A DNA stretch of 40,878 nucleotides from the UHGV virus genome UHGV-0182401; one strand, written 5' to 3'. The translations under genes were made by a program, and so were the position numbers. Below are positions 5,297 to 33,449 of the stretch, in pieces; position 1 is the first letter of the stretch; each line of letters starts with the position of its first letter. Source of the DNA: a virus. The notes beneath the pieces were generated by a model that worked only from the letters and a program-made list of their open reading frames with translations, made no database searches and had not been told where the DNA came from.

Positions 5297-5478
5297 ACGC
5301 CACAATTCAAACGATACCAGAGCTTCTTATCCAGACACGAGGCAATCAGACCGAAGTGGCGAGGATGCTTTCCTGTGCAAGAGGAACAGTGCTCAAGTAC
5401 AACCGAGACAGCAAAGGTGAGCGTCACGTAATAGTTAACGGCGTCCTGATGGTAACGCCAGGCAAAAAGGGAAGATGA
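5293..5478 (+). CDS. ninH: NinH-like small DNA-binding protein
   Basis: GNQTEVARMLSCARGTVLKY matches the remembered lambda NinH core. Confidence 0.7.
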   Translation: MNATIQTIPELLIQTRGNQTEVARMLSCARGTVLKYNRDSKGERHVIVNGVLMVTPGKKGR

Positions 5479-5996
5479 TGAGCATAAGAGAACTAAACCT
5501 CACCAAAGAACAGCACGATTGGCTGAATTGCTGGCTTGAACTGTGGGGCGCATGGGTTTATTCAGGTCGTCTGGAAAAGCGCATGAGCAGCGTAATAGCG
5601 AAGTTCATGGAGAGCGTAGAGCCGGGAAGAGTTATGACAAGGCCAATGTGCAATGATGATGATGGAATGTTGATTTCTCAGGTCGTCGATTCCGTCATGT
5701 ACATTGACAAGAAAGCCTTTGGCATCCTCCTCAGCTACTACGCTCATGGTTCATCTAAGCGAGCAATTGCATCCTACTATCACGCGACTGCAAAGCCACG
5801 CAAGATGTGTGGACGTGGTGGCGAGGGATGGAGAAAACCTTCACTGGCAACCTGTAGAAACGAAATTGACGACATCCTGAAAGCGTCGTTATTTGTTTTG
5901 TACCAGCCAATGCAAAATGCTTTCAAAATGCGTAAACGTGTTGAGAAAGTTAAGCATGTTGCTGTTAAAAGCCTTGACATGCAATTATCCATTTAG
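5475..5996 (+). CDS. Late-gene antiterminator Q (Q21/QuuD-like family)
   Basis: WGAW and CNDDDGMLI motifs resemble remembered QuuD; last gene before the candidate late promoter. Confidence 0.7.
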   Translation: MMSIRELNLTKEQHDWLNCWLELWGAWVYSGRLEKRMSSVIAKFMESVEPGRVMTRPMCNDDDGMLISQVVDSVMYIDKKAFGILLSYYAHGSSKRAIASYYHATAKPRKMCGRGGEGWRKPSLATCRNEIDDILKASLFVLYQPMQNAFKMRKRVEKVKHVAVKSLDMQLSI

Positions 5997-6534: not shown

Positions 6535-6565
6535 GCCCTTGCAGAAATGCAGGGGCTTTTTTATT
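6535..6565 (+). terminator. Intrinsic terminator (tR-prime-like)
   Basis: GCCCTTGCA-GAAA-TGCAGGGGC hairpin followed by TTTTTTATT; immediately upstream of the cargo cluster. Confidence 0.65.
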
Positions 6566-6592
6566 GGCTCAGTGCCACCAGGTGAACACCGT

Positions 6593-15920: not shown

Positions 15921-15934
15921 ATCGCAGGTAAACC

Positions 15935-17155: not shown

Positions 17156-17159
17156 TCCA

Positions 17160-17663
17160 ATGACTGCATATCTGTACCGGATGCCTGTTGGCATTGCCGG
17201 GGCTATCTCTCGCCCGCAGGACTTAACCGTCGAACCGGTGGTCCTTAAATCCGATAACGCCTTTGCTGCCTATGGGCTGGCTGGTAAATACGATGATGAC
17301 GGTTTTTTCGTGCCGCTGGAGGACGGTGACACCGCCGACAAGGTGAAGGGGATCTACGTTCGTCCGTATCCGACCACATCGCAGCCAGACATGGTTCGCC
17401 AGGTGGGGACGGATAAGAATTTCCCGGGCGACGCCATGAAACGTGGCTACATGACCGTTAACCTTGGATCTGGCTTCGATGCCAGCACCATCAAAAAAGG
17501 TGATCCTGTCTACGTGGTCGTTTCGCTCGATTCAACCATTGACGTGCCGCTGGGCGGCTTCATGTCCACGTCCGTCAGTGGCAAAAACGTGGCGCTGACC
17601 AACGCCGAATTCACAGGGGCCGGTGACGCTAACGGCAATGCAGAAATCTCCTGGAAGATTTAA
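17160..17663 (+). CDS. Head structural protein
   Basis: 167 aa immediately upstream of the major capsid gene. Confidence 0.45.
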   Translation: MTAYLYRMPVGIAGAISRPQDLTVEPVVLKSDNAFAAYGLAGKYDDDGFFVPLEDGDTADKVKGIYVRPYPTTSQPDMVRQVGTDKNFPGDAMKRGYMTVNLGSGFDASTIKKGDPVYVVVSLDSTIDVPLGGFMSTSVSGKNVALTNAEFTGAGDANGNAEISWKI

Positions 17664-17674
17664 GGAACAGACGA

Positions 17675-18616
17675 ATGATTACTTTTGATCAGGCAACAGT
17701 TGATAGCTCTGGTGCCTTTCTCATCGGGGAGCTGGAGCGACTCGACCAGACGCTGAACCTGCCACTGGTGGGGTACACCTGGACCCGCGATATCCAACTG
17801 CGTGAAGATGTCTCCATCGCAGATGACATTTCCAGCTGGACGAATACCAGCTTCGCCGCTGCGGGTACTGGCGCAAATCCGAATGGCAAAAACTGGGTAG
17901 GCAAAGACTCAACCGCTATTGCTGGCGTAAACGTGGATATCGGCAAATCCGGTAACCCGCTGAATCTCTGGGGCATGGAACTGGGCTGGACCGTTGTAGA
18001 GCTGGCAGCAGCTCAGCAGGTAGGTCGCCCGATTGACACCCAGAAGTACGACGGGATGCAGCTCAAATGGCAGATGGACAACGACGAGCAGGTGTATGTT
18101 GGCGATTCCGCATTAAACCTGAAAGGCCTTGTTACCCTGAACGGTGTTCCTGTCAACAACGCTGCCAAAACGTGGGCAACCTCAACACCGGACGAAATCC
18201 GCGCAAGCATTAACCAGGTGCTGTCTGATGCGTGGGCCGCTTCTGGTTACTCTGTGGTTCCGCGTGATTTGCTGATCCCGCCAGAGCAGTTTGCTCTGTT
18301 GTCCAGCATCATCGTTTCATCTGCGGGTAACCAGTCCCTGTTGACGTACCTTCAGACCAACACCATCAGCTATCACCAGAACGGTGTTCCGCTGAATATC
18401 CGCGCGGTTAAATGGCTGAAAGGCCGTGGTGTGGGGAATAAGGATCGCATGGTTGCGTACACCAACGATAAAAAATACGTCCGCTATCCGCTGGTGCCGT
18501 TGCAGAGCGTTCCTATCCAGTATCGCGGTCTGTATCAGATTGCGACCTACTACGGCAAGCTCGGTGCGGTTGAGCCAGTGTACAAAGAAACCATTTCGTA
18601 CGTTGATGGCATTTAA
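17675..18616 (+). CDS. Major capsid protein
   Basis: 313 aa in the capsid position, followed by a strong GC hairpin. Confidence 0.7.
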   Translation: MITFDQATVDSSGAFLIGELERLDQTLNLPLVGYTWTRDIQLREDVSIADDISSWTNTSFAAAGTGANPNGKNWVGKDSTAIAGVNVDIGKSGNPLNLWGMELGWTVVELAAAQQVGRPIDTQKYDGMQLKWQMDNDEQVYVGDSALNLKGLVTLNGVPVNNAAKTWATSTPDEIRASINQVLSDAWAASGYSVVPRDLLIPPEQFALLSSIIVSSAGNQSLLTYLQTNTISYHQNGVPLNIRAVKWLKGRGVGNKDRMVAYTNDKKYVRYPLVPLQSVPIQYRGLYQIATYYGKLGAVEPVYKETISYVDGI

Positions 18617-18623
18617 CAGCCAT

Positions 18624-18644
18624 ATGGCCCCCTTGCGGGGCCAT
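18624..18644 (+). other. Stable hairpin after the capsid gene (ATGGCCCC-TTGC-GGGGCCAT)
   Basis: 8-bp stem; no T-run, so more likely an mRNA-stabilising or attenuating structure than an intrinsic terminator. Confidence 0.4.
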
Positions 18645-18657
18645 TAAGGATGACCCA

Positions 18658-18879
18658 ATGGCAAAAAATAATGCAGTAATACACGTACATACCCCGTTTG
18701 TGCTCACGCTTCCCGACGGTTCGCGGCGCGAGTTTGTTAAAGGCCGTCATGCAGTGGAGGAAGACGTTGCCACGCACTGGTTCACTCGTGCGCACGCGGA
18801 AGTATCCGTTGGCAAAGCCACAGACGCGCGTAACGAGGTAAAAAATGCCAAAGAATCAAAGTCTGCCAACGGTAAGTGA
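18658..18879 (+). CDS. Hypothetical head-tail joining region protein
   Basis: ORF with upstream AGGA; position only. Confidence 0.4.
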
Positions 18880-19252
18880 TTTTCGCCGCGACTTCCCGCA
18901 GTTTGTTGACCCTGCCAAATATCCCGAAGCGCAAATCCAGTTTCGTCTGAATCTGGCCGATGAACTGCTGAGCGAAAACGTCACCGGCAAAAAGTTGTTT
19001 CCGTACTTTGCCGGGTTGTTCGTTGCGCACTACATGACGCTCTGGGCGGCAGACAGCAGAGCGATGCTGGCTGGTGGTCCGGGCGGTTCAACCAATGGTG
19101 TTCAATCCTCTAAGTCCGTTGACAAGGTAAGCGTCAGCTATGACACCAGCGCGACGCTGAATCCTGATGCAGGTTTCTGGAATAACACCCGATATGGCGT
19201 TGAATTTTATCAGTTGATCACGATGTTCGGTGCAGGTGGTCGCCAGCTATGA
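18845..19252 (+). CDS. Putative head-tail connector/adaptor protein
   Basis: Position and operon coupling. Confidence 0.45.
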
Positions 19253-19803
19253 GTTTCAAAAGCGGTGTAACAACGAGGGTGGATAACGCTAAGGCCATTC
19301 TGGATGCGCTCAGGTCGCTAACCAAAAAGGATGTGCTGGTCGGCATCCCTTCGGAAGACAGCGAGCGTGAAGATGTTCAGTTTGGTAATGCCGGGATCGG
19401 CTATGTCAACGAATACGGCTCACCAGCGCAAAACATCCCCCCACGCCCGCACCTGACCCCCGGCGTTAAATCGGTAGAGGAACAGACAGTGCCGCAGCTC
19501 AAAGCAGCGGCGCAGGCTGCGCTTGATGGAAATGCGGTGGGGGCGGAAAGAGCGCTCAACCGTGCCGGAACGCTGGCCGCTAATGGCGTCAGGCGTTACA
19601 TGACTATTACCGGCTTTACACCGCTTGCTGATAGCACCGTTGAAGCCCGCGCACGTCGAGGTCGCAAAGGGGCGAAAGCTGAGCTTGCCCGACGCGCTGC
19701 TGGTGAGTCTCCTGGAACCGATCTGGTGAAACCGCTAATCGACACCGGGCAATATCGCAGAGCTATTACCCATATTGTGAGGGATAAAGATGCCGACTCT
19801 TGA
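19249..19803 (+). CDS. Putative head completion protein
   Basis: ATGA overlap with the upstream gene; position. Confidence 0.45.
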
Positions 19804-20176
19804 TGTAACAGACGTGCTTTTTGACCCCGATTTTTGCGACTTCAACCTGTGGGTAACGCGTCGCGCGCAAACGGTGGACGATGACGGGATCGGCAGCGAC
19901 AGCGAAGTTAAAACGCAGTTTGCCGGGGTTGTTACTGTTGACCGCTCCCTGGAAAACCGCCGCATGCAGGCCGGGCAGGTTATCAGCGGCGCGATTCTCA
20001 TCGTGACAACTGAGCGGCTGACACAGGGGCAGACTGGCCGTGATGCCGATATCGTGACGTATCAGGGCCGTGATTATCGTGTGACATTCGTCGACCCGTA
20101 TACCGCTTACGGTGCTGGCTTCGTCCAGGCGCATTGCGAACTGTTGCCGTTTGATGGGGGTACTCCCGTTGAGTAA
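19790..20176 (+). CDS. Putative tail completion protein
   Basis: Position between head and sheath genes. Confidence 0.45.
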   Translation: MPTLDVTDVLFDPDFCDFNLWVTRRAQTVDDDGIGSDSEVKTQFAGVVTVDRSLENRRMQAGQVISGAILIVTTERLTQGQTGRDADIVTYQGRDYRVTFVDPYTAYGAGFVQAHCELLPFDGGTPVE

Positions 20177-20717
20177 TAACACCAGCACAGAGCGCGGCTG
20201 GCTGACACCCACCAGCGGCGATCCGGCTTATGACGAAGCGCTCGACAGGCTGTTAAGCCAGTGGATGCGTAACGTTTCCGGTCTGTCTGCCGGGATGGTT
20301 CGTCCGCGCTGGCAGAAAAATCAGCCGCCACTGCCACCCGTTGAAACGAACTGGTGCGCGTTTGGCGTTACCGGGTTGCTCATTGATAACAACCCTGCAT
20401 TCACCGGGCAGACTGAAGAGGGCGCTCAGCTCTGGAGGCATGAAACGTTCGAGTGCATGGCGTCGTTCTATGGTCCGGCGGGGATGGTGTATGCGTCCCG
20501 GTTTCGTGACGGTATATCTGTACCGCAGAACAACGCAGCACTGAATGCGCTGGGGCTGTCTCTTGGCGATTACACAGGTCTGACTCCCTTCCCCGAACTT
20601 ATCAACCAGCAATGGGTTCGCCGTTACGACATGACGGTGCGACTGCGCCGGAAGGTTGTCCGCGAGTATGGCATCAAATCGCTGGTGGAAGTGCCAGTCA
20701 CCTTTTTTGGAGAATAA
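20154..20717 (+). CDS. Putative tail completion protein
   Basis: Start chosen at the internal ATG (MGVLPLS) to avoid a long overlap. Confidence 0.45.
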   Translation: MGVLPLSNNTSTERGWLTPTSGDPAYDEALDRLLSQWMRNVSGLSAGMVRPRWQKNQPPLPPVETNWCAFGVTGLLIDNNPAFTGQTEEGAQLWRHETFECMASFYGPAGMVYASRFRDGISVPQNNAALNALGLSLGDYTGLTPFPELINQQWVRRYDMTVRLRRKVVREYGIKSLVEVPVTFFGE

Positions 20718-20720
20718 ACT

Positions 20721-21881
20721 ATGACGCAGGGCTTACCTGTATCCAACGTTGTAAACGTTGATGTGATCATCTCGCCGAAAGCGGCTACTGGTCGTAACTT
20801 CGGCGCATTGCTAATCCTTGGCTCTTCCACTGTCATTCCGGTGACAGAACGTACTCGCCTATATGCTTCCATTGAGGACATTGGCGAAGACTTCGGTGTC
20901 GACAGCCCGGAATATAAAGCAGCGCAGGTTTTCTTCAGCCAGTCACCGAAGCCGACACAGGTTTATGTTGGTCGCTGGGCGAAGACGCTGAGTTCTTCCG
21001 AGAGTGGAGATACTGAAACTATCGTGCAAGCCGTTAATGCCTGCCTGCAATATACCAACTGGTATGGGCTGGTTGTCGCTGATGATGTTGTCGCTGGTGG
21101 CGATGTGCTTGATGCTGATGACGTGATTGAGGTTGCTAAACTCATCGAAGCGTCCAGCCTGAGCCGCATTTTCGGGGTAACATCTGCTGACGCCGAGATT
21201 ATCAGCACGACTTCGACGACTGATGTTGCGTCGAAATTAAAGGCTGGCAAGTATTCCCGTACCTTTGTTCAGTATTCCACCAGCAGCCCTTATGCGGCTG
21301 TTTCAGCTTTCGGTCGCGCGTTTACTGTCAATTTCAACGGCAGCAATACCACCATTACCCTGAAATTCAAACAGGAACCGAGCGTAACCTACGAAACGCT
21401 GACGGTAGGACAGGCGGCGGCTGTGGATGCGAAGAATGCGAACGTGTTCGTGTACTACGCCAACGACACGGCGATCCTGCAACAGGGCGTCATGGCGAAC
21501 GGTGACTTCTTCGACGAGCGCCACGGGCTCGACTGGTTGCAGAACTACGTTCAGACCAACCTCTATAACCTGCTTTACACCAGCACCACCAAAATTCCGC
21601 AGACTGATGCCGGTGTGACCCGTCTGCTTTCCAACGTTGAACAGTCCATGGATCAGTCCGTCACGAACGGTCTGGTAGCGGCTGGCGTGTGGAATGGTGG
21701 ACCTATCGGACAGCTGAATTCCGGCGATACGCTGACCAAAGGTTATTACGTGTATGCGCAACCTCTTTCAGAACAGGCGCAGGCCGACCGAGAAGCTCGC
21801 AAAGCACCGTTAATTCAGGTGGCCTGTAAGCTGGCTGGCGCAGTTCATTATGCCGATGTGCAGATCAACGTGGTTCGCTAA
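20721..21881 (+). CDS. Putative tail sheath protein
   Basis: 386 aa followed by tube, frameshifted chaperone pair and tape measure, the P2-like order; size close to P2 sheath. Confidence 0.55.
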
Positions 21882-21891
21882 GGAGCGATAA

Positions 21892-22332
21892 ATGGCAACT
21901 TATTCTTTTCTCGATGTAACCGCGTCGCTCACCGGGCCGACCGGCGTTATCGATCTTGGTCAGGGTTCTGCCAACTCTGAGGAAGGTATCACCCAGACCA
22001 TGGGCGGCAACAAGAACACTATGACCATCGGTGCCGATGGCGAAGTGATGCACAGCCTGCACGCCGATAAGTCAGGCACCATTACGGTGACGCTGCTGAA
22101 AACCTCCCCGGTGAACAAGAAGCTGTCTCTGGCGTATAACGCGCAAAGCCAGTCCTCTGCCACCTGGGGCAATAACGTGATCGTCATTCGCAACACGGCA
22201 TCGGGTGATATTTCTACTGCGCGTTCGTGCGCATTCCAGAAACAGCCTGATTTCAATAACGCCAAAGAGGGCGGGACTGTTTCCTGGGTGTTCGACTGCG
22301 GCAAGATTGACCAGCTGCTCGGGGAGTTTTAA
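21892..22332 (+). CDS. Putative tail tube protein
   Basis: 146 aa following the sheath candidate. Confidence 0.55.
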   Translation: MATYSFLDVTASLTGPTGVIDLGQGSANSEEGITQTMGGNKNTMTIGADGEVMHSLHADKSGTITVTLLKTSPVNKKLSLAYNAQSQSSATWGNNVIVIRNTASGDISTARSCAFQKQPDFNNAKEGGTVSWVFDCGKIDQLLGEF

Positions 22333-22335
22333 CGC

Positions 22336-22761
22336 ATGGAATTCGAAATTAAAGGCGTGAAATATCGCACCGCAAAGCTCAGCGTTTTCGAACAGCTGAA
22401 GGTGTCCCGCAAGCTGTTGCCGGTGCTGGCCGGGATGGTTTCTGACTTTCGGAGCGTTCAGGAGAAGATCAGCAGCAAAGACACCGAAGGCGCGATGGCT
22501 ACCATCCTGCCAAAGATTGCCAATGCTGTGTCCGATCTGAGCGATGGCGACGTGGACGCTATCCTGTTCCCCTGCCTTTCCGTTGTTTCACGCGAGCACA
22601 TGAAAGGCTGGGTGCCGGTCTGCCAGCATGGCGAAATGGCGTTTGACGATATCGACCTGCTGACCATGCTGCAACTGGTGGCGCGGGTGGTCGCCGACTC
22701 GCTGGGAAATTTTTTGCAAGGACTCCCTACCAGCGAGACGCCCACCCCGCCAGCGGAATAA
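22336..22761 (+). CDS. Tail assembly chaperone (short form)
   Basis: Between tube and tape measure; slippery heptamer TTTTTTG near its 3-prime end. Confidence 0.6.
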   Translation: MEFEIKGVKYRTAKLSVFEQLKVSRKLLPVLAGMVSDFRSVQEKISSKDTEGAMATILPKIANAVSDLSDGDVDAILFPCLSVVSREHMKGWVPVCQHGEMAFDDIDLLTMLQLVARVVADSLGNFLQGLPTSETPTPPAE

Positions 22762-22949
22762 CCTTCAACAGCCTGCCGGGCGGTGAAGATTTTATTCTTC
22801 GTCCGGCGCTTGCCTTCCAGATTGACCAGAAAGACCTTAACAGCGGTGCGGTAGACCTCTGCCGCATCGCGCTTCTCAATGACTACCTCGACATGCGCGA
22901 GGATAACGACGCCCGGGTAGATAAATGGAGAGCGGCCAATGAGCGGTAA
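22710..22949 (+). other. Programmed -1 frameshift site and extended chaperone reading frame (analogous to P2 E/E+E-prime and lambda G/GT)
   Basis: T-TTT-TTG heptamer at 22710-22716 in frame; the -1 frame stays open for about 75 codons to a stop at 22947-22949. Confidence 0.55.
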
Positions 22950-24954
22950 CGCAGATACGATTAAAGATTTCCTTGTTTCGCTGGGATTCGATATCGATCA
23001 GGCTGGCGCTAATAAGTTTGAAGCCGTGCTGAAAGGCGTTACCGCGAACGTTCTGAAGGTCGGCGCGGTGGTGAAAGGCGCAGCGCTGAGCATTGTCGGA
23101 TTTACCACCCAGATCGCGAATGGTCTGGATAAAATTTACTGGGCATCCCAGCGGACGGGGGCCAGCGTCCAGGGCATCAAAGCGCTGGGCTATGCCGCAT
23201 CGCAAACTGGCGCCAGCGCTGAGTCGGCCATGTCCTCCCTCGAAGGGTTGGCTGGCTTCATGCGTAGCAATCCGGGGGCGGAAGGGTTCCTGAACCGTCT
23301 TGGTGTCCAGACCCGCGATGCCAGCGGAAAGATGCGTGATACTGCTGCCATCTTTACTGGCGTTGGGCAAAAGCTCAACAACATGCCGTATTACCGCGCG
23401 AAGCAATACGCGCAGATGCTCGGCATCGATGAAAACACGCTGATGGCGATGCGCAGAGGGATGGGGCAGCTCAGTTCTGAGTACGCGTTGACGGCAAAGC
23501 GTATTGGTTTTAATGCTGAGTCAGCGGCTAAACAGTCCAATATTTTCATGACCTCCATGCGTAATCTGACGATGACGCTTGGACAGGCGAAAGACAAGAT
23601 TGGCTCTAACCTAGCTGGTGGCCTTGCTGGCAGCATTGATAACTTCCGCAGGCAGATACTCGACAACTGGCCGAAGATTGAAGCGGTCATCACGAAGATC
23701 ATCAAAGGAATTCTCTGGGCAGGTGACGCGATTACCCGCGTGTTATGGCGAACTGGGCAAGCTGTTGAGGGTGTGATCGCCTGGTTCAAAAAGCTGAACC
23801 CAGCCACGCAGCAGCTTATCGCATTGTTCAGTGGGCTGTTGGTTGCATGGCGGCTGCTAAATACCGCTTTCATGTCATCACCCTTGGGCATGATAACGAC
23901 GCTTATTATTGCACTTGGTCTGCTCTTTGATGATTACCAGACGTGGAAAGAAGGTGGCAAAAGCCTGATTGACTGGGGGAAATGGAAGACTGAAATTGAT
24001 CAGGCCGTCAAAATGATTGGTGACCTGAAAAAGACTGTTACGGACCTGACAAAAGCGCTGGCTAAGTTGCTCGGTATTGACCCCAAGTCATGGTCCCTAA
24101 AGTGGGATTTTAGCAACTTCATTTCGCAAATGGGTGAGTTCGGCAAGATGCTGAACATGATCGCCGACCTGCTCAACGCCATTAAAGATGGCCGCTGGGC
24201 TGATGCCGCCAGCATCGGCAAACAGATGCTTAATCAGGGCAGCGAAAATCCGTCAGCGATGCCGATGGTAACAGACAGCGCCAACGGAACCGCCGACTGG
24301 ATTAAAGAGCACTGGGGATTCGATCCTCGCAGCGTGGGCCGAACGGTGCGCGGCTGGTTCGGTGATGATGAGCCTGAACAGCTCGGCCAGTCAGTTAAGC
24401 GGCCACAGCCAACCAAAGCAGGCTCTGAACTGCTGGGATGGATGCAGCCGATGTTTACCAACCTGGAACAGCTCTACCGGCTTCCGGAGGGGTTATTGCG
24501 CAGCGTGGCCATAACGGAATCGGGCGGTAATCAGTTCGCCGTTTCAGGCGCTGGCGCGAAAGGTCTGTTTCAGTTTATGGATGGCACGGCGCGCGACATG
24601 GGCCTGCGTGGCAATGATGTATTCGACCCGGAAAAGTCAGCTCAGGCAGCCGCTAAGTACCTCAGCCAGCTGTTGCGGCAGAACGGCGGAGACCTTAGCA
24701 AAGCACTGGCATCATATAACTGGGGGATCGGGAATGTTAAGCGTTATGGAATGGGGCTAATGCCGCAGGAAACGCGCAACTACATTCCGAAAGTAATGAG
24801 CAATATGCCCACCAGCGCCCCGGTGATTCAGCAGGAAACGAATATTAACATCCACGGTGTTTCCGATCCGCGTGAAGCTGCCCGTTTGACTGTTGACCGT
24901 CAAAAGGGCGTGAATTCACAGTTAACCCAGCAACTCCCCGCAGGACCGAGATAA
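22939..24954 (+). CDS. Tail tape measure protein with C-terminal lytic transglycosylase (SLT) domain
   Basis: 671 aa; ESGGNQFAVSGAGAKGLFQFMDGTARDMG matches the SLT catalytic motif. Confidence 0.75.
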   Translation: MSGNADTIKDFLVSLGFDIDQAGANKFEAVLKGVTANVLKVGAVVKGAALSIVGFTTQIANGLDKIYWASQRTGASVQGIKALGYAASQTGASAESAMSSLEGLAGFMRSNPGAEGFLNRLGVQTRDASGKMRDTAAIFTGVGQKLNNMPYYRAKQYAQMLGIDENTLMAMRRGMGQLSSEYALTAKRIGFNAESAAKQSNIFMTSMRNLTMTLGQAKDKIGSNLAGGLAGSIDNFRRQILDNWPKIEAVITKIIKGILWAGDAITRVLWRTGQAVEGVIAWFKKLNPATQQLIALFSGLLVAWRLLNTAFMSSPLGMITTLIIALGLLFDDYQTWKEGGKSLIDWGKWKTEIDQAVKMIGDLKKTVTDLTKALAKLLGIDPKSWSLKWDFSNFISQMGEFGKMLNMIADLLNAIKDGRWADAASIGKQMLNQGSENPSAMPMVTDSANGTADWIKEHWGFDPRSVGRTVRGWFGDDEPEQLGQSVKRPQPTKAGSELLGWMQPMFTNLEQLYRLPEGLLRSVAITESGGNQFAVSGAGAKGLFQFMDGTARDMGLRGNDVFDPEKSAQAAAKYLSQLLRQNGGDLSKALASYNWGIGNVKRYGMGLMPQETRNYIPKVMSNMPTSAPVIQQETNINIHGVSDPREAARLTVDRQKGVNSQLTQQLPAGPR

Positions 24955-25580
24955 TGGATATTTTATCAGCGATTTTTCGCCAGCAATCCCGGCGAATTGG
25001 CCTGCTGATCCCCAGCGTGGTCGTCTCCGAAAAGCATTCTGATGCGCTCGAAATTACTGAGCATCCGGTGGAGAAGCCAACAACGAATAGCGCGTCGGGT
25101 TTCATCGCCGATCATGCGTATAAGCGTCCCAGCGAAGTCACAATGGAATGCGGCTTTGCTGGTGGCGGTTCGTTGCTGGACTTCATCGATACATCTTCAA
25201 TCGGCCTCAGCGCCGGGCTTAGCCCAAAAGAAACATACCAAAAGCTGCTGGATATGCAGCTTGAGCGCGTGCCATTCGATGTGGTTACCGGGAAGAGGGT
25301 GTACACCAATATGCTGGTGCGTGCCATTGAGGTGACGACCGATAAAACCAGCGAGAACGTGCTGAACTGCACGCTTACCCTGCGTGAAGTCATCATAACG
25401 CATACAAAAAATGTCACCGTTGCTGATAAATCCGATATGCAGGACGGGGTTAGTACATCTGCGGTGCAGAATTCCGGGACTAAATCCACCACCCCAGTAA
25501 ATGAATCGGTAATTAAGTCAACAGGGTGGTTTGATGGACTAAAAGGAACCAGTCTTGGTAACTCTATAGGTATCCAATGA
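24954..25580 (+). CDS. Tail protein (P2 gpU-position)
   Basis: Position after tape measure. Confidence 0.45.
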   Translation: MDILSAIFRQQSRRIGLLIPSVVVSEKHSDALEITEHPVEKPTTNSASGFIADHAYKRPSEVTMECGFAGGGSLLDFIDTSSIGLSAGLSPKETYQKLLDMQLERVPFDVVTGKRVYTNMLVRAIEVTTDKTSENVLNCTLTLREVIITHTKNVTVADKSDMQDGVSTSAVQNSGTKSTTPVNESVIKSTGWFDGLKGTSLGNSIGIQ

Positions 25581-25882
25581 ATGTAACTGAAATCCCTTTA
25601 TCGCCGGATAACCAGCTATTTCGCATTCAGTTAGCAGAGACAACATACACGCTGAGAGTCATTTGGCGTGATTCTGCTGGCTGGATTCTGGATGTACAAG
25701 ATAGCAGTGGCGAACCGCTTCTTTCTGGCGTGCCGCTGGTAACCGGTGTAAATCTTCTTGAGCAATATCCTCAACTAGGTATTAACGGGGCGCTGCTCGT
25801 TGGCTGCGATGTAGGCGCACCGGACGAGCCCACCAAAACCAACCTCGGCACATACAGCCACCTCATTTTCGTGCAGGAGTAG
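25577..25882 (+). CDS. Tail protein (P2 gpX-position)
   Basis: ATGA overlap with the upstream gene; position. Confidence 0.45.
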   Translation: MNVTEIPLSPDNQLFRIQLAETTYTLRVIWRDSAGWILDVQDSSGEPLLSGVPLVTGVNLLEQYPQLGINGALLVGCDVGAPDEPTKTNLGTYSHLIFVQE

Positions 25883-25884
25883 AA

Positions 25885-26949
25885 ATGTCTCTTAACTGGA
25901 TGCGCCATTTTGAGTTGCAGCTGTTGGACCAGAACGGGCAGGGTATTTCCCTGTCTGATTTTAAGGTCACGTTCCAGATCGAGTGGGCAGATACACGCTG
26001 GCCGCGCGTGGCAAACGTGAAAATTTACAACCTTTCGACCGATACCACGAACAAGATACTGGGGCAGGAATTTGCCAAAATTCGCATCATTGCCGGGTAT
26101 GACGGTATTGCGCCGGATGTTGATGCGAGCCAGGTTGGTGTCGCCCGGGAGATTTCACCAGACCAGGTAGGGCAGGTGAACGGTCAGAACTACGGCCTGA
26201 TATTTGACGGTGATATTCGCTTCACCGTCACCGGGAAGGACAACATCACCGATTCCTGGGTGCTGATTCAGGCCATCAGTAACCACGAAGCGTTCCTCTA
26301 CGCGACTACCATCACCACGCTTGCCGCTGGTTATACCGTTGCGGACCTGCACCGGGCGACTATGCAGGATTTCAACGCGTTCGGCGTGACGCAGGGCATT
26401 ACCGGTGACTTTCCTGATACCGTGTTTCCTCGTGGCCGTGCGATTTATTCATCCACCCGTAACGTGATGGATAATATTGCTGCGCAGTGCAAAGCGACAT
26501 GGCAGCTGGTGGATGGTCAGGTCCAGATGGTGCCGGAGGATAAATATATTCACGAAGCCATTGTGTTGAATGCCGATACTGGCCTGATCGGTATGCCGCA
26601 ACAAACGATGGGCGGCGGAGTAAACGTGCGGTGCCTGATAAACCCAAACATCCGTATTAATGGTCTTATCCAGCTCGATCAGGCTTCGGTGTACCGCGCT
26701 GCGCTCGGCAATAGCGAAATCGCTCAGTCGCCCGGGCGTATCACCGAAACGGAAGAGAACGGCAACCGCGTGCTGACAGGTACGACGTCACAGGCTGCCA
26801 GCATTGCGACAGATGGCGTTTATATCGTCAAAGCTATCGACTATACTGGCGACACCAGAGGTCAGGCGTGGTACATGGATTTGATGTGTTTTGCGCGTGG
26901 GGCTCGCGAGCTTTACAGCCAGAATGCCATGCTGAAAACCAACTATTGA
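25885..26949 (+). CDS. Tail/baseplate hub protein (P2 gpD-position)
   Basis: 354 aa, position. Confidence 0.5.
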   Translation: MSLNWMRHFELQLLDQNGQGISLSDFKVTFQIEWADTRWPRVANVKIYNLSTDTTNKILGQEFAKIRIIAGYDGIAPDVDASQVGVAREISPDQVGQVNGQNYGLIFDGDIRFTVTGKDNITDSWVLIQAISNHEAFLYATTITTLAAGYTVADLHRATMQDFNAFGVTQGITGDFPDTVFPRGRAIYSSTRNVMDNIAAQCKATWQLVDGQVQMVPEDKYIHEAIVLNADTGLIGMPQQTMGGGVNVRCLINPNIRINGLIQLDQASVYRAALGNSEIAQSPGRITETEENGNRVLTGTTSQAASIATDGVYIVKAIDYTGDTRGQAWYMDLMCFARGARELYSQNAMLKTNY

Positions 26950-26959
26950 GGTGAATATT

Positions 26960-27304
26960 GTGAAGCGTGTAGCAGCCGTAATTTTTCTGCTGACTTCGTT
27001 TTTATCCTTGAGTGCATTTGCTGATTCACAATGTGGTAACTACAGGGTGCACTGGGCGGATGATGGGCTTGCAAGAATTAATGGCGCAAAACCAGAAACT
27101 CAAAAAATCACTTTTCTGAAAAAAGAAGGTGATTATAACAATGTAAAATTTGAGTGGGTTGTTGCTACCGATCAACCCGGTCGCTGGGTGGGAATGGAGT
27201 TCATTGGGCGCAACGGAAAAGCCATTCTCAATGTCCAGTGGCTGCAAGCCAGCATGAATGCGCCGCGTCAGTATGCAACATACGACTGCCGAAAAGTAAA
27301 ATAG
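26960..27304 (+). CDS. Small secreted protein with signal peptide (moron candidate)
   Basis: GTG start after GAGGTGA; signal peptide MKRVAAVIFLLTSFLSLSAFA; inserted between baseplate genes. Confidence 0.5.
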   Translation: MKRVAAVIFLLTSFLSLSAFADSQCGNYRVHWADDGLARINGAKPETQKITFLKKEGDYNNVKFEWVVATDQPGRWVGMEFIGRNGKAILNVQWLQASMNAPRQYATYDCRKVK

Positions 27305-27322
27305 CCCGCCAGATAGGCGGGC
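27304..27322 (-). terminator. Hairpin terminator between convergent genes
   Basis: GCCCGCC-AGATA-GGCGGGC perfect 7-bp stem; T-rich on the minus strand downstream of the 27328..27618 gene. Confidence 0.5.
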
Positions 27323-27327
27323 ATGCG

Positions 27328-27618
27328 TCAAAAATATTGAGCTTTAATTATAATAAACACAATAATTACGAACAGGATGTTTCTAATTATTTTTTGCTTA
27401 TGAGTAAGTTGTTTTTTTTCTGTCGATTTCCCGGGAGAGTAAAGGTTAGTGGTATGCGACAGCCCCGTGCCGGGAAGGCCATTTGTCATCTTTACGCCTT
27501 TTTTCCCGATGTTAATGGTGGAACCTTTACCACCAATTGAAGTGCTTACTCCGCTTTTGCTAATGTTGATCGCGAGTCCGGGCGCAATCCGGATTCTTTT
27601 GCGAAATCTAAAGCCCAT
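27328..27618 (-). CDS. DUF4236-like protein with C-terminal transmembrane segment
   Basis: N-terminal MGFRFRKRIRIAPGLAINISKSGVS...GLPGTGLS pattern matches remembered DUF4236; lies in an AT-rich tract. Confidence 0.55.
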   Translation of the reverse strand: MGFRFRKRIRIAPGLAINISKSGVSTSIGGKGSTINIGKKGVKMTNGLPGTGLSHTTNLYSPGKSTEKKQLTHKQKIIRNILFVIIVFIIIKAQYF

Positions 27619-27805
27619 TTGTTACTCCTGTAGTCAAGAATGCGATGGTGCAGGTCCACTCTATGGCGGCTTCATGGCTGAAATTGATTTTTAATGCTTA
27701 CTTGTTGCAAATATATCCTAATACACCTTGTGAATATGTGCCATTGCAGCGGAAAAGCCTTACTTCACACTGATGTAGCTTAGTTACTAAGAGATAATTG
27801 ATACC

Positions 27806-27829
27806 AAACCAGCTTCGGCTGGTTTTTTT
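27806..27829 (+). terminator. Intrinsic terminator just upstream of the baseplate spike gene
   Basis: AAACCAGC-TTCG-GCTGGTTT followed by TTTTT. Confidence 0.5.
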
Positions 27830-27840
27830 ATGGGGTTTTT

Positions 27841-28581
27841 ATGCCAATTCCTACTCAATCACAGATCGGCGGCGAGCAGCAGACCGCGCAGGCCATTGCC
27901 GATTCGGTGTCTACTCAGATGCGCGTAGCGATGCCTGGCATCATTCAGTCGTTCGATCCTGACGCTGTAACCTGCACAGTAGAGGTGGCGCTTCGCGGTA
28001 TTGTTGGCGACGACTCCACCGAATTAAAACCGCTGGTGGATGTGCCTGTCATCTTCCCGCGCGGAGGCGGTTGCACGCTGACCTTTCCGGTAAAAGAAGG
28101 CGATGAGTGCCTGCTGATCTTTGCCGACCGTTGCATCGATTTCTGGTGGCAGAGCGGCGGCGTTCAGGAGACCGTCGACCCGCGCCAGCATGACTTATCT
28201 GATGCGTTCGCCATCGTTGGCCCGCAGTCGCAAGCGCAAAAAATCAGCGGTATCAGTACCAGCGCCGCGCAGCTGCGAACCGATGATGGTGTGGCGTTCG
28301 TAGAGGTTTCCGCAGGACATAACATCACCGTTCAAACACCGGGCCAGCTCACGGCTACGGCTGAAGGTGGAACGACAATCACATCCCCGACTATCACGCT
28401 GAACGGCAACGTAACGATTAATGGCAATCTGTCTCAGGGAATGGGAGAAAGTGGTGGTACTGCGACGATGCTTGGGCCGGTTACGGTAACGAATGATGTG
28501 ACAGCTTCAGGTATAAGTGTCGCCACGCATAAACATGGCGGAGTTCAGACAGGCGGGGGAACTACTGGAGGGCCGCAATAA
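27841..28581 (+). CDS. Baseplate spike protein (P2 gpV-like)
   Basis: 246 aa with glycine-rich C-terminus; followed by W/J/I-like genes in P2 order. Confidence 0.65.
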   Translation: MPIPTQSQIGGEQQTAQAIADSVSTQMRVAMPGIIQSFDPDAVTCTVEVALRGIVGDDSTELKPLVDVPVIFPRGGGCTLTFPVKEGDECLLIFADRCIDFWWQSGGVQETVDPRQHDLSDAFAIVGPQSQAQKISGISTSAAQLRTDDGVAFVEVSAGHNITVQTPGQLTATAEGGTTITSPTITLNGNVTINGNLSQGMGESGGTATMLGPVTVTNDVTASGISVATHKHGGVQTGGGTTGGPQ

Positions 28582-28934
28582 TGCGATACCGACGAGAAGA
28601 TGCTGACGGCGATTACACTTTCGGGCAAGGTGACGACACCTTCCTTATCGACAGTCCGGAATGTGTCGCCCAGGCCGTAAAAACCCGTTTCGAGCTCTGG
28701 CGCGGTCAGTGGTTTCTCGATCTGACGGAAGGCACGCCGTATGTTCAGTCAGTGCTTGGGAAACAGCGATCAGACGTCTACATCCTGGCTATACGCGAAC
28801 GCATACAGGACACGCCGGGCGTTCTGTCGATTCTTTCCTTCGATACCAATTATGACGGCACCAGCCGCCGCGTCACTTTCACTTCCTCCATTGACACAAT
28901 CTACGGCCAGACGACTGTAACAAGCGAGGCATAA
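28581..28934 (+). CDS. Baseplate protein (P2 gpW-like)
   Basis: 117 aa, position and size. Confidence 0.65.
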   Translation: MRYRREDADGDYTFGQGDDTFLIDSPECVAQAVKTRFELWRGQWFLDLTEGTPYVQSVLGKQRSDVYILAIRERIQDTPGVLSILSFDTNYDGTSRRVTFTSSIDTIYGQTTVTSEA

Positions 28935-30134
28935 ATGGCTTTGAACCTCGACACGCTGGGGCTATCGGCAACGGTAACCGCCCAGGGGATTAGTGCGCCT
29001 GATTACCAGACAATCCTCGATACACTGACCAGCTATTTCAGGCAGATTTACGGTAGTGATGCCTACCTCGAACCAGACAGCAAAGATGGGCAAATGGTCG
29101 CGCTGGTGGCTCTGGCTGTGCATGATGCTAACAATACCGCTATCGAGATCTACAACTCGTTTTCACCGACGACAGCGCAGGCCGCAGCGCTTAGCAGCAA
29201 TGTGAAAATTAACGGGATCACGCGAAAAGTAGCGACAAACTCTACTGCTGACCTTCTGTTAACCGGTACGGCGGGCACGACTATCACGAATGGCTCCGCA
29301 CGGGATAAAAACGGCATTATCTGGAATTTTCCCGCGAGTGTAGCAATCGGGGTTGATGGTACTGTGCTGGTGACGGCCACATGTGCGAATAGCGGTTCGG
29401 TTGCGGCGATGGCCGGGACTATTACCACCATTAACACACCGACTCGCGGCTGGGTGTCGGTAACCAACCCTGCTGCGGCTATTGTCGGTTCACCAGCCGA
29501 AACCGACGCAGAGCTGCGCATTCGGCAGGGGCAAAGCGTCGCGCTACCATCGATCACACCGTTTGAAGGTGTCGACGGTGCAATAGCTAACGTTGCTGGC
29601 GTGACACGTCACAAGCTGTATGAGAACGACACGGGGGCAACCGACAGCAACGGGCTGCCGCCGCACTCAATTTCCGCCATCGTCGATGGTGGGGATGTTA
29701 CCGAAATAGCCCAGACCATCAGGGGGAATAAAGGGCAGGGAACGGCAACCTACGGGACAACTTCTGTCACGGTGCCGGATACTTACGGTAATCCTCACGT
29801 CATCAGTTTTTCACGCTCTACCGATGTGCCAATTTTCGTAGCCATTACCCTGAAAGTTTTTACCGGGTATACCTCTCAAATCGGCGAGCAGATCAAACAG
29901 GCTGTTGCCGACTATATTAACGGCCTGACAATTGGCGACGACGTTCTGCTGAGCCGTATTTATTCCCCGGCAAACCTTGGTGTTGTGAGCGGCGGTAATG
30001 CCCGATATTACGACATTCAGGAGCTGCTCATCGGCAAATCCTCTGACTCAGTCGCAAGCGGAAATATCGATATTGCTTATGACGAATCTGCGTCATGCGT
30101 TGCGAGTCACGTCACTATCACGGTGACCTCATGA
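28935..30134 (+). CDS. Baseplate protein (P2 gpJ-like)
   Basis: 399 aa, position and size. Confidence 0.65.
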   Translation: MALNLDTLGLSATVTAQGISAPDYQTILDTLTSYFRQIYGSDAYLEPDSKDGQMVALVALAVHDANNTAIEIYNSFSPTTAQAAALSSNVKINGITRKVATNSTADLLLTGTAGTTITNGSARDKNGIIWNFPASVAIGVDGTVLVTATCANSGSVAAMAGTITTINTPTRGWVSVTNPAAAIVGSPAETDAELRIRQGQSVALPSITPFEGVDGAIANVAGVTRHKLYENDTGATDSNGLPPHSISAIVDGGDVTEIAQTIRGNKGQGTATYGTTSVTVPDTYGNPHVISFSRSTDVPIFVAITLKVFTGYTSQIGEQIKQAVADYINGLTIGDDVLLSRIYSPANLGVVSGGNARYYDIQELLIGKSSDSVASGNIDIAYDESASCVASHVTITVTS

Positions 30135-30811
30135 GCAAATACACCGAACTGATCACTAACTACCATGCTACCAAGCCACTCTTTTTTGACCATATAGATC
30201 TGAGCACCCGCCCGCTGATTGATGTGTCCAGCACTATGTCAGGGCTTATAACAGCCTTCGATATCGATACTGCTGTCGGTGTACAGCTCGACATCCTCGG
30301 TCTGTGGATCGGACGCAGTCGCATAGTCAGCCAGCCAATTAGCGGAGTTTATTTCAGCTGGGACACTGACGGGCTTGGGTATGACCAGGGCATCTGGCAA
30401 GGGCCATATGATCCTGATTCTGGCTATACGACGCTAAGCGATGAGACGTACCGCATCATTCTGAAAGCGAAAATCGCTATCAACAACTGGGACGGTCGGA
30501 ACGACTCTCTGCCTCCCATCCTTGACGCTGCTACCGCAGGCTCAGGCCTGAGGATGCAGATCGTCGACAACCAGGACATGACGATTTCGGTCTGGGTTTT
30601 CCCTGAAACTGATATTTCTGATGTGTCTCTCGAACTGATCGCCGCTATCAAACAGGGCTATCTCACCGTTAAATCAGCTGGCGTATGGGCCGGTGATGTT
30701 GAAACGCCTTCGGTAGAAACACCGTCAGAAGGCTCTAAATTCTTTGGGTTTGATATGGATAACGAATACATCGGCGGGCTCGATGTTGGAGCATGGGGGA
30801 CTTTACTCTAA
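30131..30811 (+). CDS. Baseplate/tail protein (P2 gpI-like)
   Basis: ATGA overlap with the upstream gene. Confidence 0.6.
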   Translation: MSKYTELITNYHATKPLFFDHIDLSTRPLIDVSSTMSGLITAFDIDTAVGVQLDILGLWIGRSRIVSQPISGVYFSWDTDGLGYDQGIWQGPYDPDSGYTTLSDETYRIILKAKIAINNWDGRNDSLPPILDAATAGSGLRMQIVDNQDMTISVWVFPETDISDVSLELIAAIKQGYLTVKSAGVWAGDVETPSVETPSEGSKFFGFDMDNEYIGGLDVGAWGTLL

Positions 30812-31692
30812 TGGCAACAAATAACTTTAAAGCGTTCGCGCTTGATCCTAACGCTAACGTCATGTCACAGGCAGACTGGGAAGCGCTTCCGGCGCTGCTG
30901 TCTGGTTTTACTGCCGGGAAGGCCTCCAGTGCGCAGGTTAACAAGGCGTTGCGGCAGAGCAGTACCATGGCAGCTGTTATCGCGCAATTCATGGCTGATA
31001 AAACAGGACAGGATGTACTGGATAATGGTAACACCAGCCAATTAGAGGCGATATTTGCCAGTGCAATCCAGGGGCGTCTAATCAATGTCCGTGTGTTTAC
31101 ATCATCCGGGACTTACACGCCAACCAATGGAACAAAGTCGATTATCGTCGAAGTGCAAGGAGGAGGCGGAGGTGGTGGTAATGCCAAGGCCACTTCGTCC
31201 ACCACATATACATTGACCTCATCGGGAGGGGCTGGTGGGTATGCTAAATCCAGACTTACCAATCTTGCCGCCTCTTATTCTGTAACTGTAGGAGCAGGAG
31301 GCGCGGGAGGTGTTTCTGGAGGGCAGTCAGTTTTTGGCTCTATTACATGCGGAGGAGGAGGTGCTGGCAGCCAAATAGGCGGGTCTTATACAGCATCGAG
31401 CAGTGTAGTAACACTTGGCGCATCAGGAGGCGATGCTTCGGGTGGCAATATAGTTAATGTTCCTGGTTCGAGTGCCGATCCGTCACTTTTAATCGCTGGC
31501 GGGGCTGTGTCTGCTGTTGGTGGAAATTCAGTCATCGGTACTGGTGGGAAAGGTGCCGGTTCTTCTTCTGCTACCGGACTTCCTGGAACACTAGGCGGCG
31601 GTGGTGGTGGTGCTAATGCCGCTGGAAATACTACGTTAATTGCTGGCGGTAAAGGCGGTGACGGTATTGTTATAATTTGGGAGTTTGCATGA
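30811..31692 (+). CDS. Tail fibre protein with glycine-rich repeats
   Basis: Long Gly/Ser/Ala-rich repeat tracts (GGGGGGNAK..., TLGGGGGGANAAG...). Confidence 0.65.
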   Translation: MATNNFKAFALDPNANVMSQADWEALPALLSGFTAGKASSAQVNKALRQSSTMAAVIAQFMADKTGQDVLDNGNTSQLEAIFASAIQGRLINVRVFTSSGTYTPTNGTKSIIVEVQGGGGGGGNAKATSSTTYTLTSSGGAGGYAKSRLTNLAASYSVTVGAGGAGGVSGGQSVFGSITCGGGGAGSQIGGSYTASSSVVTLGASGGDASGGNIVNVPGSSADPSLLIAGGAVSAVGGNSVIGTGGKGAGSSSATGLPGTLGGGGGGANAAGNTTLIAGGKGGDGIVIIWEFA

Positions 31693-32285: not shown

Positions 32286-33449
32286 TCACGCGATATTCAC
32301 CAGTTCAGCAAAAGCGCCTTGTGCCATATTTGTGCCATTCCCCGCCAGAAATGAGTCGATTTGCATGGCATGCTGCGTCAGGTGATTCGGTGCCAGATGG
32401 GCATAACGCTGTACCATCTCGATACTTTCCCACCCGCCCATTTCCTGTAGCGCACTGAGTGGCACGCCGGACTGTACAAGCCAGCTTGCCCAGGTGTGCC
32501 GCAGGTCATGGAAGCGGAAATTTTCTATTCCCGCCCGCCTTAACGCTGCTCGCCATGCCGTGTTAGCATCAGACCGCATTTTGCGCACTGCCTTTGTTCT
32601 CGTTCCATCCGGGCGAACGGATGATTCAGTGTGAACAAAGACCCACCGGTTATGTTTCCCCAGCTGCTCCCGCAGCACCTTACAGGCCGATTCGTTCAGG
32701 GCGACCCCAATCGCCCTTCCTGCTTTCGCGTCCTCGGGGTGAATCCACGCGACCTTCCTCTGCATATCAATTTGTGACCACTCCAGATCGGTGATGTTCG
32801 ACCTGCGCAGCCCCGTCGCCAGTGCAAAAATAACAACTGGCTTCATATGCTCGGGAAGTTCCCGGATCAGGTTCGCCGCTTCCTCTTTGGTTAGCCAGCG
32901 AATACGCTTATTTTTCGGCACCGGGCATTTGATGTTCGGCGCCTTGGCTATCCATCGCCATTCGTTGGCCGCACATCGTAACAGCGCCCGGATGAAAGCA
33001 AGGTGCGTCGCCTTCGTCGCCAGCGACGCTGGTTTATCCTTAAATTCAGGAACCGGCTTACCTCTTCGCAGCAGGCTGTCCCGTTTCGCCTCCCAGTTCA
33101 TTCGATGTTTGCGATTAACCATCGAACTCACCGCCGACAAGATCCTGTCTTCCGTGATTGCTGACAGGTCCATTCCTTTGAAGTGCATTCTCCAGAATCC
33201 GATCCGGCTTTTGTCATCGTCCAGGCTTTTCTTGTGCTGCTTTTCGTTAAGCCAGCGAACGCACGCTTCATCGAACGTTCTCGGCTTAAACTCACCCATC
33301 TTATCAACTCGCCATGCTTCAGCTTTCAGCTGATCATAGAGCTCCTGCGCTTGCCTTTTGTCCGTTGTCCCAAGAGACCGTCTAATTCGACTTCCACCAG
33401 GCGTAACGAAGTCGCAGTGCCACGTACCGGCACGTTGTTTGATTGACAT
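32286..33449 (-). CDS. int: Tyrosine integrase
   Basis: 387 aa; N-terminus resembles remembered P22 Int; C-terminal HDLRHTWAS...Y catalytic region. Confidence 0.9.

Follow-up and report, generated by a model that had tools for sequence, protein, structure and literature searches.

Two convergent accessory genes between the hub and spike genes

We analysed the interval between the baseplate hub gene and the baseplate spike gene of the UHGV virus genome UHGV-0182401, a stretch of 40,878 nucleotides (hereafter the window) corresponding to the near-complete genome of a temperate Escherichia coli phage that combines a contractile tail with a lambdoid-type regulator. This interval of 891 bp contains two convergent genes, one encoding a predicted secreted protein and the other a protein with a DUF4236 domain, as well as two hairpins and 187 bp of non-coding DNA (Table 1). 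The comparison with related loci described below very probably identifies it as an accessory hotspot in which the DUF4236 gene has the anatomy of a mobile cassette.

Table 1. Coordinates of the accessory region and of the backbone genes used as landmarks in the window.
Feature	Position	Strand	Remarks
Secreted (periplasmic) beta-barrel protein gene, phrog_3443	26960..27304	+	114 amino acids (aa); predicted secretion; GTG start, alternative in-frame GTG at 26951
DUF4236 gene	27328..27618	-	96 aa; Pfam PF14020 match
Intrinsic terminator of the DUF4236 gene (left)	27294..27322	-	Stem-loop 27322-27304, then T-tract; overlaps the last base of the secreted-protein stop codon
Cassette-specific non-coding region	27619..27805	-	187 bp upstream of the DUF4236 gene; presumably promoter and 5' leader
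Plus-strand intrinsic terminator (right slot border)	27806..27840	+	Stem-loop 27806-27825 and T7, running into the spike ribosome-binding site ATGGGGTTTTT; spike ATG at 27841
Candidate sigma-70-like promoter	26819..26847	+	TTTATA-17-TATACT; lies in the 3' part of the hub coding sequence and precedes the secreted-protein gene by about 110 nt; 9/12 consensus, weak
Baseplate hub gene, E217 gp41-like	25885..26949	+	354 aa; left backbone anchor of the accessory region
gpV-type baseplate spike gene	27841..28581	+	Right backbone anchor
Dit-like protein gene	24954
Pam3 gp18-type plug gene	25577
Sheath gene	20721		Contractile tail marker
Tube gene	21892		Contractile tail marker
Q-like antiterminator gene	5475..5996	+	phrog_943 'anti-termination protein Q-like', E 1.1e-92; precedes the lysis and structural genes on the same strand
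Integrase gene	32286-33449	-

The hub-spike segment is compositionally foreign. The GC content of positions 26951-27840 is 0.427, against a mean of 0.539 (standard deviation 0.027) for 890-bp segments of the structural module (12207-31692); 0.27% of these segments are equally low and the minimum of the module begins at 26941. At third codon positions, the GC content is 0.43 in the secreted-protein gene and 0.42 in the DUF4236 gene, and it reaches 0.64 in the hub gene and 0.58 in the spike gene. An earlier note, made from the sequence alone, had described this stretch as strongly AT-rich, which the windowed calculation bears out relative to the flanks only, since the interval lies about 11 GC points under them and resembles the early region of the phage.

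The same note had announced a plus-strand gene for a small signal-peptide protein and a minus-strand gene with a DUF4236-like N-terminus and a C-terminal transmembrane segment, and we recovered both. For the former, we retained the 114-aa form starting at GTG 26960, which is the start annotated in RefSeq relatives. Its product begins with MKR, followed by the hydrophobic core VAAVIFLLTSFLSLS and then AFA|D, a textbook-like leader; from these features and their conservation throughout the family, a Sec signal peptide is predicted. The AlphaFold2 (AF2) model (pLDDT 81) exhibited a helix at residues 2-15 and then an up-and-down beta-barrel of eight strands, with two Cys residues (Cys25 and Cys110) that are invariant in the family lying near the two ends of the barrel. 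The protein matched phrog_3443 (E 6.2e-46, residues 2-114 on positions 2-114 of the 115-position model), which is annotated as 'unknown function', and it had no match in Pfam, NCBIfam or PADLOC. By its fold, it resembles small eight-stranded barrels such as the avidin family, the type VI secretion system (T6SS) immunity protein BtaiB and the PliC/MliC lysozyme inhibitors; we do not claim membership of any of these groups, the sequence identity with small periplasmic eight-stranded barrels being 5-13% and the match to avidin a single marginal one (37 residues, E 0.002).

The DUF4236 gene matched PF14020 with an E-value of 1.8e-20 (73.6 bits for a cut-off of 27, residues 3-55 on positions 1-54 of the 55-position model), and an identical protein is present in RefSeq under the name 'DUF4236 domain-containing protein'. 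A GGAG ribosome-binding site lies 7 nt 5' of its ATG. In the protein, a very basic N-terminal beta-meander (residues 1-60) is connected by a linker to a hydrophobic helix at the C-terminus, with 17 Lys and Arg residues against a single Asp or Glu. The hydrophobic segment spans residues 77-91 (Kyte-Doolittle value, KD, 3.05), and the AF2 model (pLDDT 83) comprises six strands and a helix at residues 73-95. This architecture, in which the basic domain is conserved and the linker varies ahead of the hydrophobic C-terminal helix, was kept throughout an alignment of 43 sequences. The modelled layout would correspond to a protein anchored by its tail in the inner membrane with the N-terminus in the cytoplasm, and a variant from Vibrionaceae in which an SH3 domain has been added after the helix is consistent with this N-in/C-out topology.

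The preserved architecture of the DUF4236 protein and the dN/dS ratio of the secreted-protein gene, which at about 0.1 indicates purifying selection, together argue that both genes are real. Neither product resembles a virion protein, given the predicted Sec signal peptide of the one and the membrane anchor of the other. The Pfam scan of the DUF4236 protein returned DUF4236 alone and homologue searches returned DUF4236 proteins alone, with no homology to gp15 or YebO. For both proteins, fold searches retrieved generic barrels and sheets only, sequence-profile searches against the PDB gave nothing significant, no defence model of PADLOC-DB 2.0 was matched at E <= 0.01, and NCBIfam had no match, one RefSeq relative being named 'STY1065/STY2022 family'. 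Our literature search on DUF4236 and STY1065/STY2022 found no functional paper.

A fixed gene and a variable cargo slot

The comparison set consisted of 90 related loci from complete Escherichia coli genomes, the isolated Citrobacter phage Omnitron, species-representative genomes and IMG/VR. Most of them came from the IMG/VR scan, the scan of genome contigs having provided 5, and 85 were scorable for the region downstream of the secreted-protein gene. The hub gene was 80-100% identical in nearly all loci, and 68% identical in one. The E. coli strains CUPF09 and EC596 harbour this prophage at 99% identity.

The earlier note had considered the whole 0.9 kb as a single insertion, a view that the synteny of these loci does not sustain. 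The secreted-protein gene was located directly 3' of the hub gene in all 90 loci, and only what follows it varied in gene content. The variable slot is the segment between the secreted-protein stop codon and the plus-strand terminator preceding the spike gene, as delimited by sequence comparison. Measured from this stop codon to the spike ATG, its length ranged from 62 nt when empty (in a Rahnella locus, L007, and an IMG/VR locus, L078) up to 1714 nt. The scorable loci and the window together displayed 22 states, namely 21 non-homologous cargo types and the empty slot. Besides the DUF4236 cassette, the cargo included two unrelated Phd/Doc toxin-antitoxin pairs, a gene with the N-terminal domain of the P22 antirepressor accompanied by small regulators, a minus-strand EACC1-like protein in two versions, and a pair of proteins of 258-261 aa and 123-130 aa, also in two versions, the smaller of which is weakly HEPN-like (E 0.006). 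There were in addition several secreted or membrane proteins without family match and many open reading frames (ORFs) without any match. The cargo examples that we noted were drawn from loci L003, L006, L044, L089, L004, L062 and L042. In PADLOC, most cargo had no match, and weak matches to SngB and HEPN_IX were obtained for two other cargo proteins.

The compartment thus delimited has three layers: a barrel gene that is fixed in the lineage, a slot with exchangeable cargo, and a conserved terminator abutting the spike ribosome-binding site.

The DUF4236 cassette, which consists of an upstream region, the gene and its own terminator and is antisense to the late operon, was the commonest state of the slot (18/90 loci). 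Among 5426 complete E. coli genomes, 53 carried the prophage family and 19 the cassette. The nucleotide identity of the cassette was mostly 94-100%, falling to 84% in two variants, whereas in the same loci the adjoining secreted-protein gene was 60-73% identical and the spike gene 43-99%. This contrast is the signature of exchange by recombination. The search for flanking direct or inverted repeats only recovered short matches at chance level, and no mobility genes were found; without repeats above chance, homologous recombination in the conserved flanks is favoured over transposition.

Terminators and non-coding DNA

The two hairpins are the sole canonical intrinsic terminators of the 20-kb structural module. 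The remaining matches of the scan were weak and intragenic, and the total over the module equalled the shuffle expectation. The left one has seven G-C pairs (dG -16.7 kcal/mol, z -4.2) and, among cargo types, it was confined to the loci with the DUF4236 cassette. The right one (dG -11.9 kcal/mol) ends 8 nt before the spike ATG and was present in all 85 scorable related loci and in the window, whatever the cargo, including the empty slots and phage Mulock. In the scorable loci and the window, the hairpin closing the slot is followed by a T-run and then by 'ATGGRGTTTTT', which adjoins the spike ATG. Presence with any cargo makes the right terminator a feature of the slot, not of the DUF4236 cassette alone. 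The bracketing by hairpin terminators that the earlier note had described was found, with the two elements oppositely oriented, the left one serving the DUF4236 gene and the right one halting plus-strand transcripts ahead of the spike gene.

The right stem varied from one cargo type to another by compensatory changes (CCCGC/GCGGG, CCAGC/GCTGG, GCCGC/GCGGC and GTCGCA/TGCGGC). Its CCAGC variant was confined to the DUF4236-cassette loci, which places the right recombination joint in the hairpin or just past it.

Within the non-coding region upstream of the DUF4236 gene, we observed in the DUF4236 cassettes a conserved block at about 27700-27760, which is a candidate promoter region for this gene by its conservation, and a leader of about 50 nt at about 27630-27680. 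The latter (minus strand; GCCGCCATAGAGTGGACCTGCACCATCGCATTCTT) is common to the cassette of a Leclercia prophage (L094, about 5950-5990), where it lies in an unrelated lambda-like tail, and it could be a regulatory leader. Two cassette variants (L032 and L065) have no such leader and retain the 27700-27760 block and the ribosome-binding site. We do not consider a 42-aa plus-strand ORF at 27645-27773 to be a gene, since it lacks a ribosome-binding site and the same two variants carry a 39-nt deletion there. The Rfam scan of the whole window retrieved no RNA family, so that a known small RNA ending at the plus-strand terminator is unsupported.

Sites matching 9 of the 12 consensus positions, like the candidate promoter within the hub gene, were no commoner here than in shuffled sequence. 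This candidate sits in a uniformly conserved coding block (67 unique sequences, the hexamers not being singled out), and its conservation is therefore uninformative.

Evolution of the secreted-protein gene

The phrog_3443 family comprised 97 clusters, and those with an organism name were all from Enterobacterales. More distant homologues of the secreted protein, with 32-40% identity, were found in Klebsiella phage Mulock as well as in prophages of Hafnia and Klebsiella, with hub identities of about 63-65%. The presence of the gene in all related loci and in these distant relatives indicates a gene fixed in the lineage, though not a structural one.

This gene was the most divergent of the cluster, with a median amino-acid divergence of 30% vs 3-22% in its neighbours, and its alleles fell into 15 groups at 90% identity. 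The median dS was 1.5, i.e., saturated, against 0.27 for the adjacent hub gene. In the related loci, the divergence breaks sharply at the hub stop codon, where the dS of about 0.27 gives way to saturation in the next gene; this break implies that a recombination boundary lies a few bases at most from that codon. The divergence of the secreted protein showed no association with that of Dit, the plug, the hub, the spike, the sheath initiator or J (rho <=0.24). Fixed presence, saturated dS and lack of correlation together point to an old gene whose alleles have been shuffled among otherwise closely related prophages. Such reassortment of old alleles suggests, from the sequence comparison, a determinant of specificity.

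The hub-spike junction in other phages

The baseplate cluster is of the Pam3/E217 'simple myophage' type by its gene content, in the order Dit-like, Pam3 gp18 plug, hub, spike, sheath initiator and J-like wedge protein, and does not follow the P2 gene order. In P2 itself, genes D and V do not lie next to each other. The P2-like framing adopted in the earlier note must thus be abandoned, although its underlying idea, that the two flanking genes are normally adjacent, stands for the present tail type: the hub gene is directly followed by the spike gene both in Pam3, a structurally solved minimal myophage, and in the virulent Rosemountvirus birk, and neither accessory gene was present in the cluster of these two phages.

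At the same junction, Burkholderia phage Magia carries a different signal-peptide gene of 123 aa on the minus strand (L107, 3445-3816). In a Hafnia paralvei prophage (L092, 6418-6894), an unrelated signal-peptide protein of 158 aa after the hub replaces the phrog_3443 protein. The adjacency in Pam3 and Rosemountvirus and the gene of Magia indicate that the junction has been colonised repeatedly in temperate relatives and behaves as an accessory hotspot; by these comparisons, it seems to attract secreted proteins repeatedly.

DUF4236 genes in other genomes

A profile of the 60-residue DUF4236 domain retrieved more than 6,132 clusters (defined at 90% identity), and the best-scoring members were nearly all 85-107 aa long. 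We inspected the neighbourhoods of nine more distant homologues. In Hafnia and Klebsiella, the gene occupied the same hub-spike slot. Elsewhere, it was located between the tape-measure gene and gpM in a lambda-like tail (Leclercia), between gpK and gpJ in another lambda-like tail (Pseudomonas syringae), in a Proteus siphovirus between the tube and chaperone genes, alongside an AAA ATPase gene inserted there, and, in one further case, after the last tail gene at the end of a prophage. One gene was found in a region rich in small genes, on a metagenomic contig without tail genes. In five of the seven tail-module cases, the gene was antisense to the tail genes. These placements in the tail modules of unrelated phages make DUF4236 a recurrent tail-module moron.

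In the Proteus prophage (L110, 1889-3268), a gene for a 459-aa AAA_15/AAA_21 ATPase and small ORFs lie between the chaperone and tape-measure genes. By its gene content, this insertion looks like a second tail-module cargo site with a defence-like ATPase, near another DUF4236 gene.

Working model and alternative explanations

Our preferred interpretation, which we hold with moderate confidence as a whole, is that the hub-spike interval is an accessory compartment expressed in the lysogen and acting at the level of the envelope to exclude incoming phages. In the lysogen, the accessory genes would be transcribed from weak constitutive promoters of their own, and the terminators would keep this transcription out of the baseplate genes. 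After induction, RNA polymerase modified by Q would read through the plus-strand terminator, as in lambdoid late operons; the Q-like antiterminator encoded in the window would explain how late transcription passes the terminator at 27806. Antisense late transcription would silence the DUF4236 gene during lytic growth. The DUF4236 protein would insert into the inner membrane via its C-terminal helix, with its basic beta-meander on the cytoplasmic face, and would block with the periplasmic protein the genome entry or the early steps of incoming phages, in the manner of HK97 gp15 or P22 SieA. The barrel protein could, for its part, target that pathway from the periplasm. Taken by itself, the function in superinfection exclusion is drawn by analogy and is tentative. 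More doubtful still is a broader proposal, according to which small tail-anchored DUF4236 proteins would form a widespread new class of envelope-level anti-phage factors of prophages, preferring the tail-gene junctions of unrelated temperate phages, with the basic meander intercepting phage DNA or ejection proteins and the hub-spike junction being an undescribed discovery site for conflict genes.

Several observations weigh against exclusion by lysogen-expressed genes. Neither protein has homology to a known exclusion or defence protein in PADLOC or Pfam. The sigma-70 scans detected no convincing promoter for either gene and none above the shuffle expectation. The divergence of the secreted protein is uncorrelated with that of its neighbours, which gives no support to a specific tail target. 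Being never absent from the lineage, the secreted-protein gene could serve the cycle of the phage itself and not the lysogen. Finally, the DUF4236 genes of Polaromonas and Photobacterium are located outside prophages, in chromosomal or mobile-element islands or islands of defence type.

The company of the DUF4236 gene is compatible with another function. Its slot-mates are of conflict type (Phd/Doc, EACC1-like and weakly HEPN-like proteins), the Polaromonas homologue lies among genes for restriction-modification, HipA-like and ubiquitin-like systems, and the Proteus homologue adjoins the AAA_15/AAA_21 ATPase gene. Combined with the extreme basicity of the domain and with one homologue (P0057) in which DUF4236 is fused to an FtsK-gamma DNA-binding domain, this could describe a membrane effector acting by abortive infection or like a toxin, and not an entry blocker, as one conflict system among the many in the slot. 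Its basic domain would detect DNA or some component of the phage, upon which its helix would oligomerise and depolarise the membrane. However, it is a lone 96-aa gene in a cassette without partner or antitoxin, it has no match in PADLOC, and the dominant form of the family is always a small stand-alone protein; we regard such an effector as unlikely. That every close relative has the secreted-protein gene raises a different question, which concerns this gene only, the DUF4236 cassette being then the sole moron. It could encode a late-expressed helper of the lytic cycle of the phage which, once in the periplasm of an infected cell, might stop sibling virions from injecting into infected or lysing cells, or might modulate the transglycosylase of the tape measure. 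Its third-position GC content, so different from that of the hub gene, does not fit with this role, nor do its alleles, far older than the flanks and reassorting independently, nor the terminator that follows it even in empty loci. The absence of the gene from Pam3 and Rosemountvirus and its replacement by an unrelated secreted protein in one Hafnia prophage also argue against it, and we hold this role to be distinctly unlikely.

Alternatively, both genes could be lysogenic-conversion factors, comparable to the lambda morons of the bor/lom type, that would alter the envelope physiology of the host with no relation to phages (for instance, tolerance to stress, colonisation, or resistance to host factors). 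The restriction of the secreted-protein family to this phage lineage, where its gene is invariably part of the baseplate cluster, and the repeated occurrence of DUF4236 in the tail modules of unrelated phages fit better with conflict between phages than with host physiology, and we consider such a role quite improbable. Even less credit can be given to one or both genes being structural or assembly components of the baseplate. The location inside the baseplate cluster and the universality of the secreted-protein gene would suggest it, yet the secreted protein has a predicted Sec signal peptide and the DUF4236 protein a membrane anchor at its C-terminus, the DUF4236 gene is missing from about 80% of the relatives and lies on the opposite strand, and the Pam3 and Rosemountvirus clusters have neither gene. 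Conservation of both genes as structural parts in all relatives, which the earlier note had named as fatal to its proposal, was thus not observed.

Comparison with known systems

Morons, in the sense of Juhala and Hendrix, are extra DNA absent from close relatives, of deviant composition, with their own promoter and terminator and expressed from the repressed prophage (PMC3594210). The earlier note had applied this term to both genes. It suits the DUF4236 gene, a self-contained and horizontally exchanged cassette that is present in a minority of loci only, the slot being empty in two and occupied by 20 other cargo types elsewhere, and that ends with its own terminator. The secreted-protein gene shares the deviant base composition of the interval (see above) but, being present throughout the lineage, it is differentially present only with respect to Pam3 and Rosemountvirus.

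The closest parallel is gene 15 of HK97, whose product is a small inner-membrane protein expressed by the prophage that blocks DNA entry (PMC3594210; Juhala et al. 2000, Cumby et al. 2012). As in our case, a temperate phage of enterobacteria under lambdoid regulation carries a small gene within its tail operon, and this gene has a deviant GC content and its own terminator and is absent from close relatives; the DUF4236 product is likewise small and predicted to reside in the inner membrane. By contrast, the DUF4236 protein is unrelated in sequence to gp15, which is YebO-like, and, compared here from sequence alone, the locus differs by its position at the hub-spike junction of a contractile tail, its antisense orientation, the multiplicity of its cargo and the fixed secreted-protein gene that precedes the slot.

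The organisation of the slot also evokes other prophage hotspots. Rousset et al. reportedly described hotspots where P2-like phages and P4-like satellites carry anti-phage systems. These have in common with the present locus a fixed site between conserved genes, an alternation of unrelated cargo among near-identical prophages, and cargo of toxin-antitoxin and HEPN type. Unlike them, the slot belongs to another phage family and lies inside a baseplate operon of the Pam3/E217 type, and most of its cargo has no match to known defence systems. As to the function of the DUF4236 protein, our working model, which is based on analogy, is that of a small phage-encoded inner-membrane protein blocking the genome delivery of related phages, like P22 SieA or T4 Imm. 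T4 Imm is a small inner-membrane protein of superinfection exclusion. SieA, of 162-164 aa, is predicted to cross the membrane three times (PMC10883804), whereas the DUF4236 protein has a single helix, at the C-terminus, beside its basic beta-meander, and shares no homology with SieA.

Morons and prophage cargo hotspots being already established, the novelty lies in an undescribed hotspot and in an uncharacterised and very common family of morons, not in a new kind of system. The hotspot is easily recognised in a common lineage of enterobacterial prophages, and its cargo types, at least 21 in number and mostly unannotated, provide candidates for screens of defence or lysogenic conversion. The orphan family DUF4236 becomes tied to a recurrent habit, antisense insertion in the tail modules of unrelated phages, which leads to a testable hypothesis of exclusion. 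A predicted periplasmic protein that is fixed in the lineage and encoded within the baseplate operon is apparently no part of the virion.

Backbone genes and other observations

The lysis and structural genes of the window are on the plus strand throughout. The hub protein matched Pfam E217_GP41 (E 7e-6), NCBIfam orf58_phage_fam (E 1e-47) and phrog_196 'baseplate hub' (E 6e-84), and the spike protein matched the Pfam spike N-terminal domain (E 1.5e-41), the GpV Apex motif (E 6e-9) and TIGR01644 phage_P2_V (E 3e-13). The tape-measure protein (22939-24954, 671 aa) has a C-terminal SLT lytic-transglycosylase domain (Pfam E 4e-25), which may be relevant if the adjacent periplasmic barrel proves to be an inhibitor of cell-wall penetration.

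The region downstream of Q is a classical cargo site, where Stx phages carry stx. In the window, three plus-strand genes (6437-8599) are located between the Q-like antiterminator gene and the lysis genes, which start at 8864, with a GC content of 0.54-0.56 vs 0.48-0.50 in their flanks. Their matches were to phrog_4603 'alpha-2,3-sialyltransferase' (E 9e-49, with a weak Pfam match to MptE-like), phrog_6804 (unknown function, E 2e-110) and a methyltransferase (phrog_6564; Pfam Methyltransf_23). Judging from these matches, the three genes may form a lysogenic-conversion module that modifies surface glycans.

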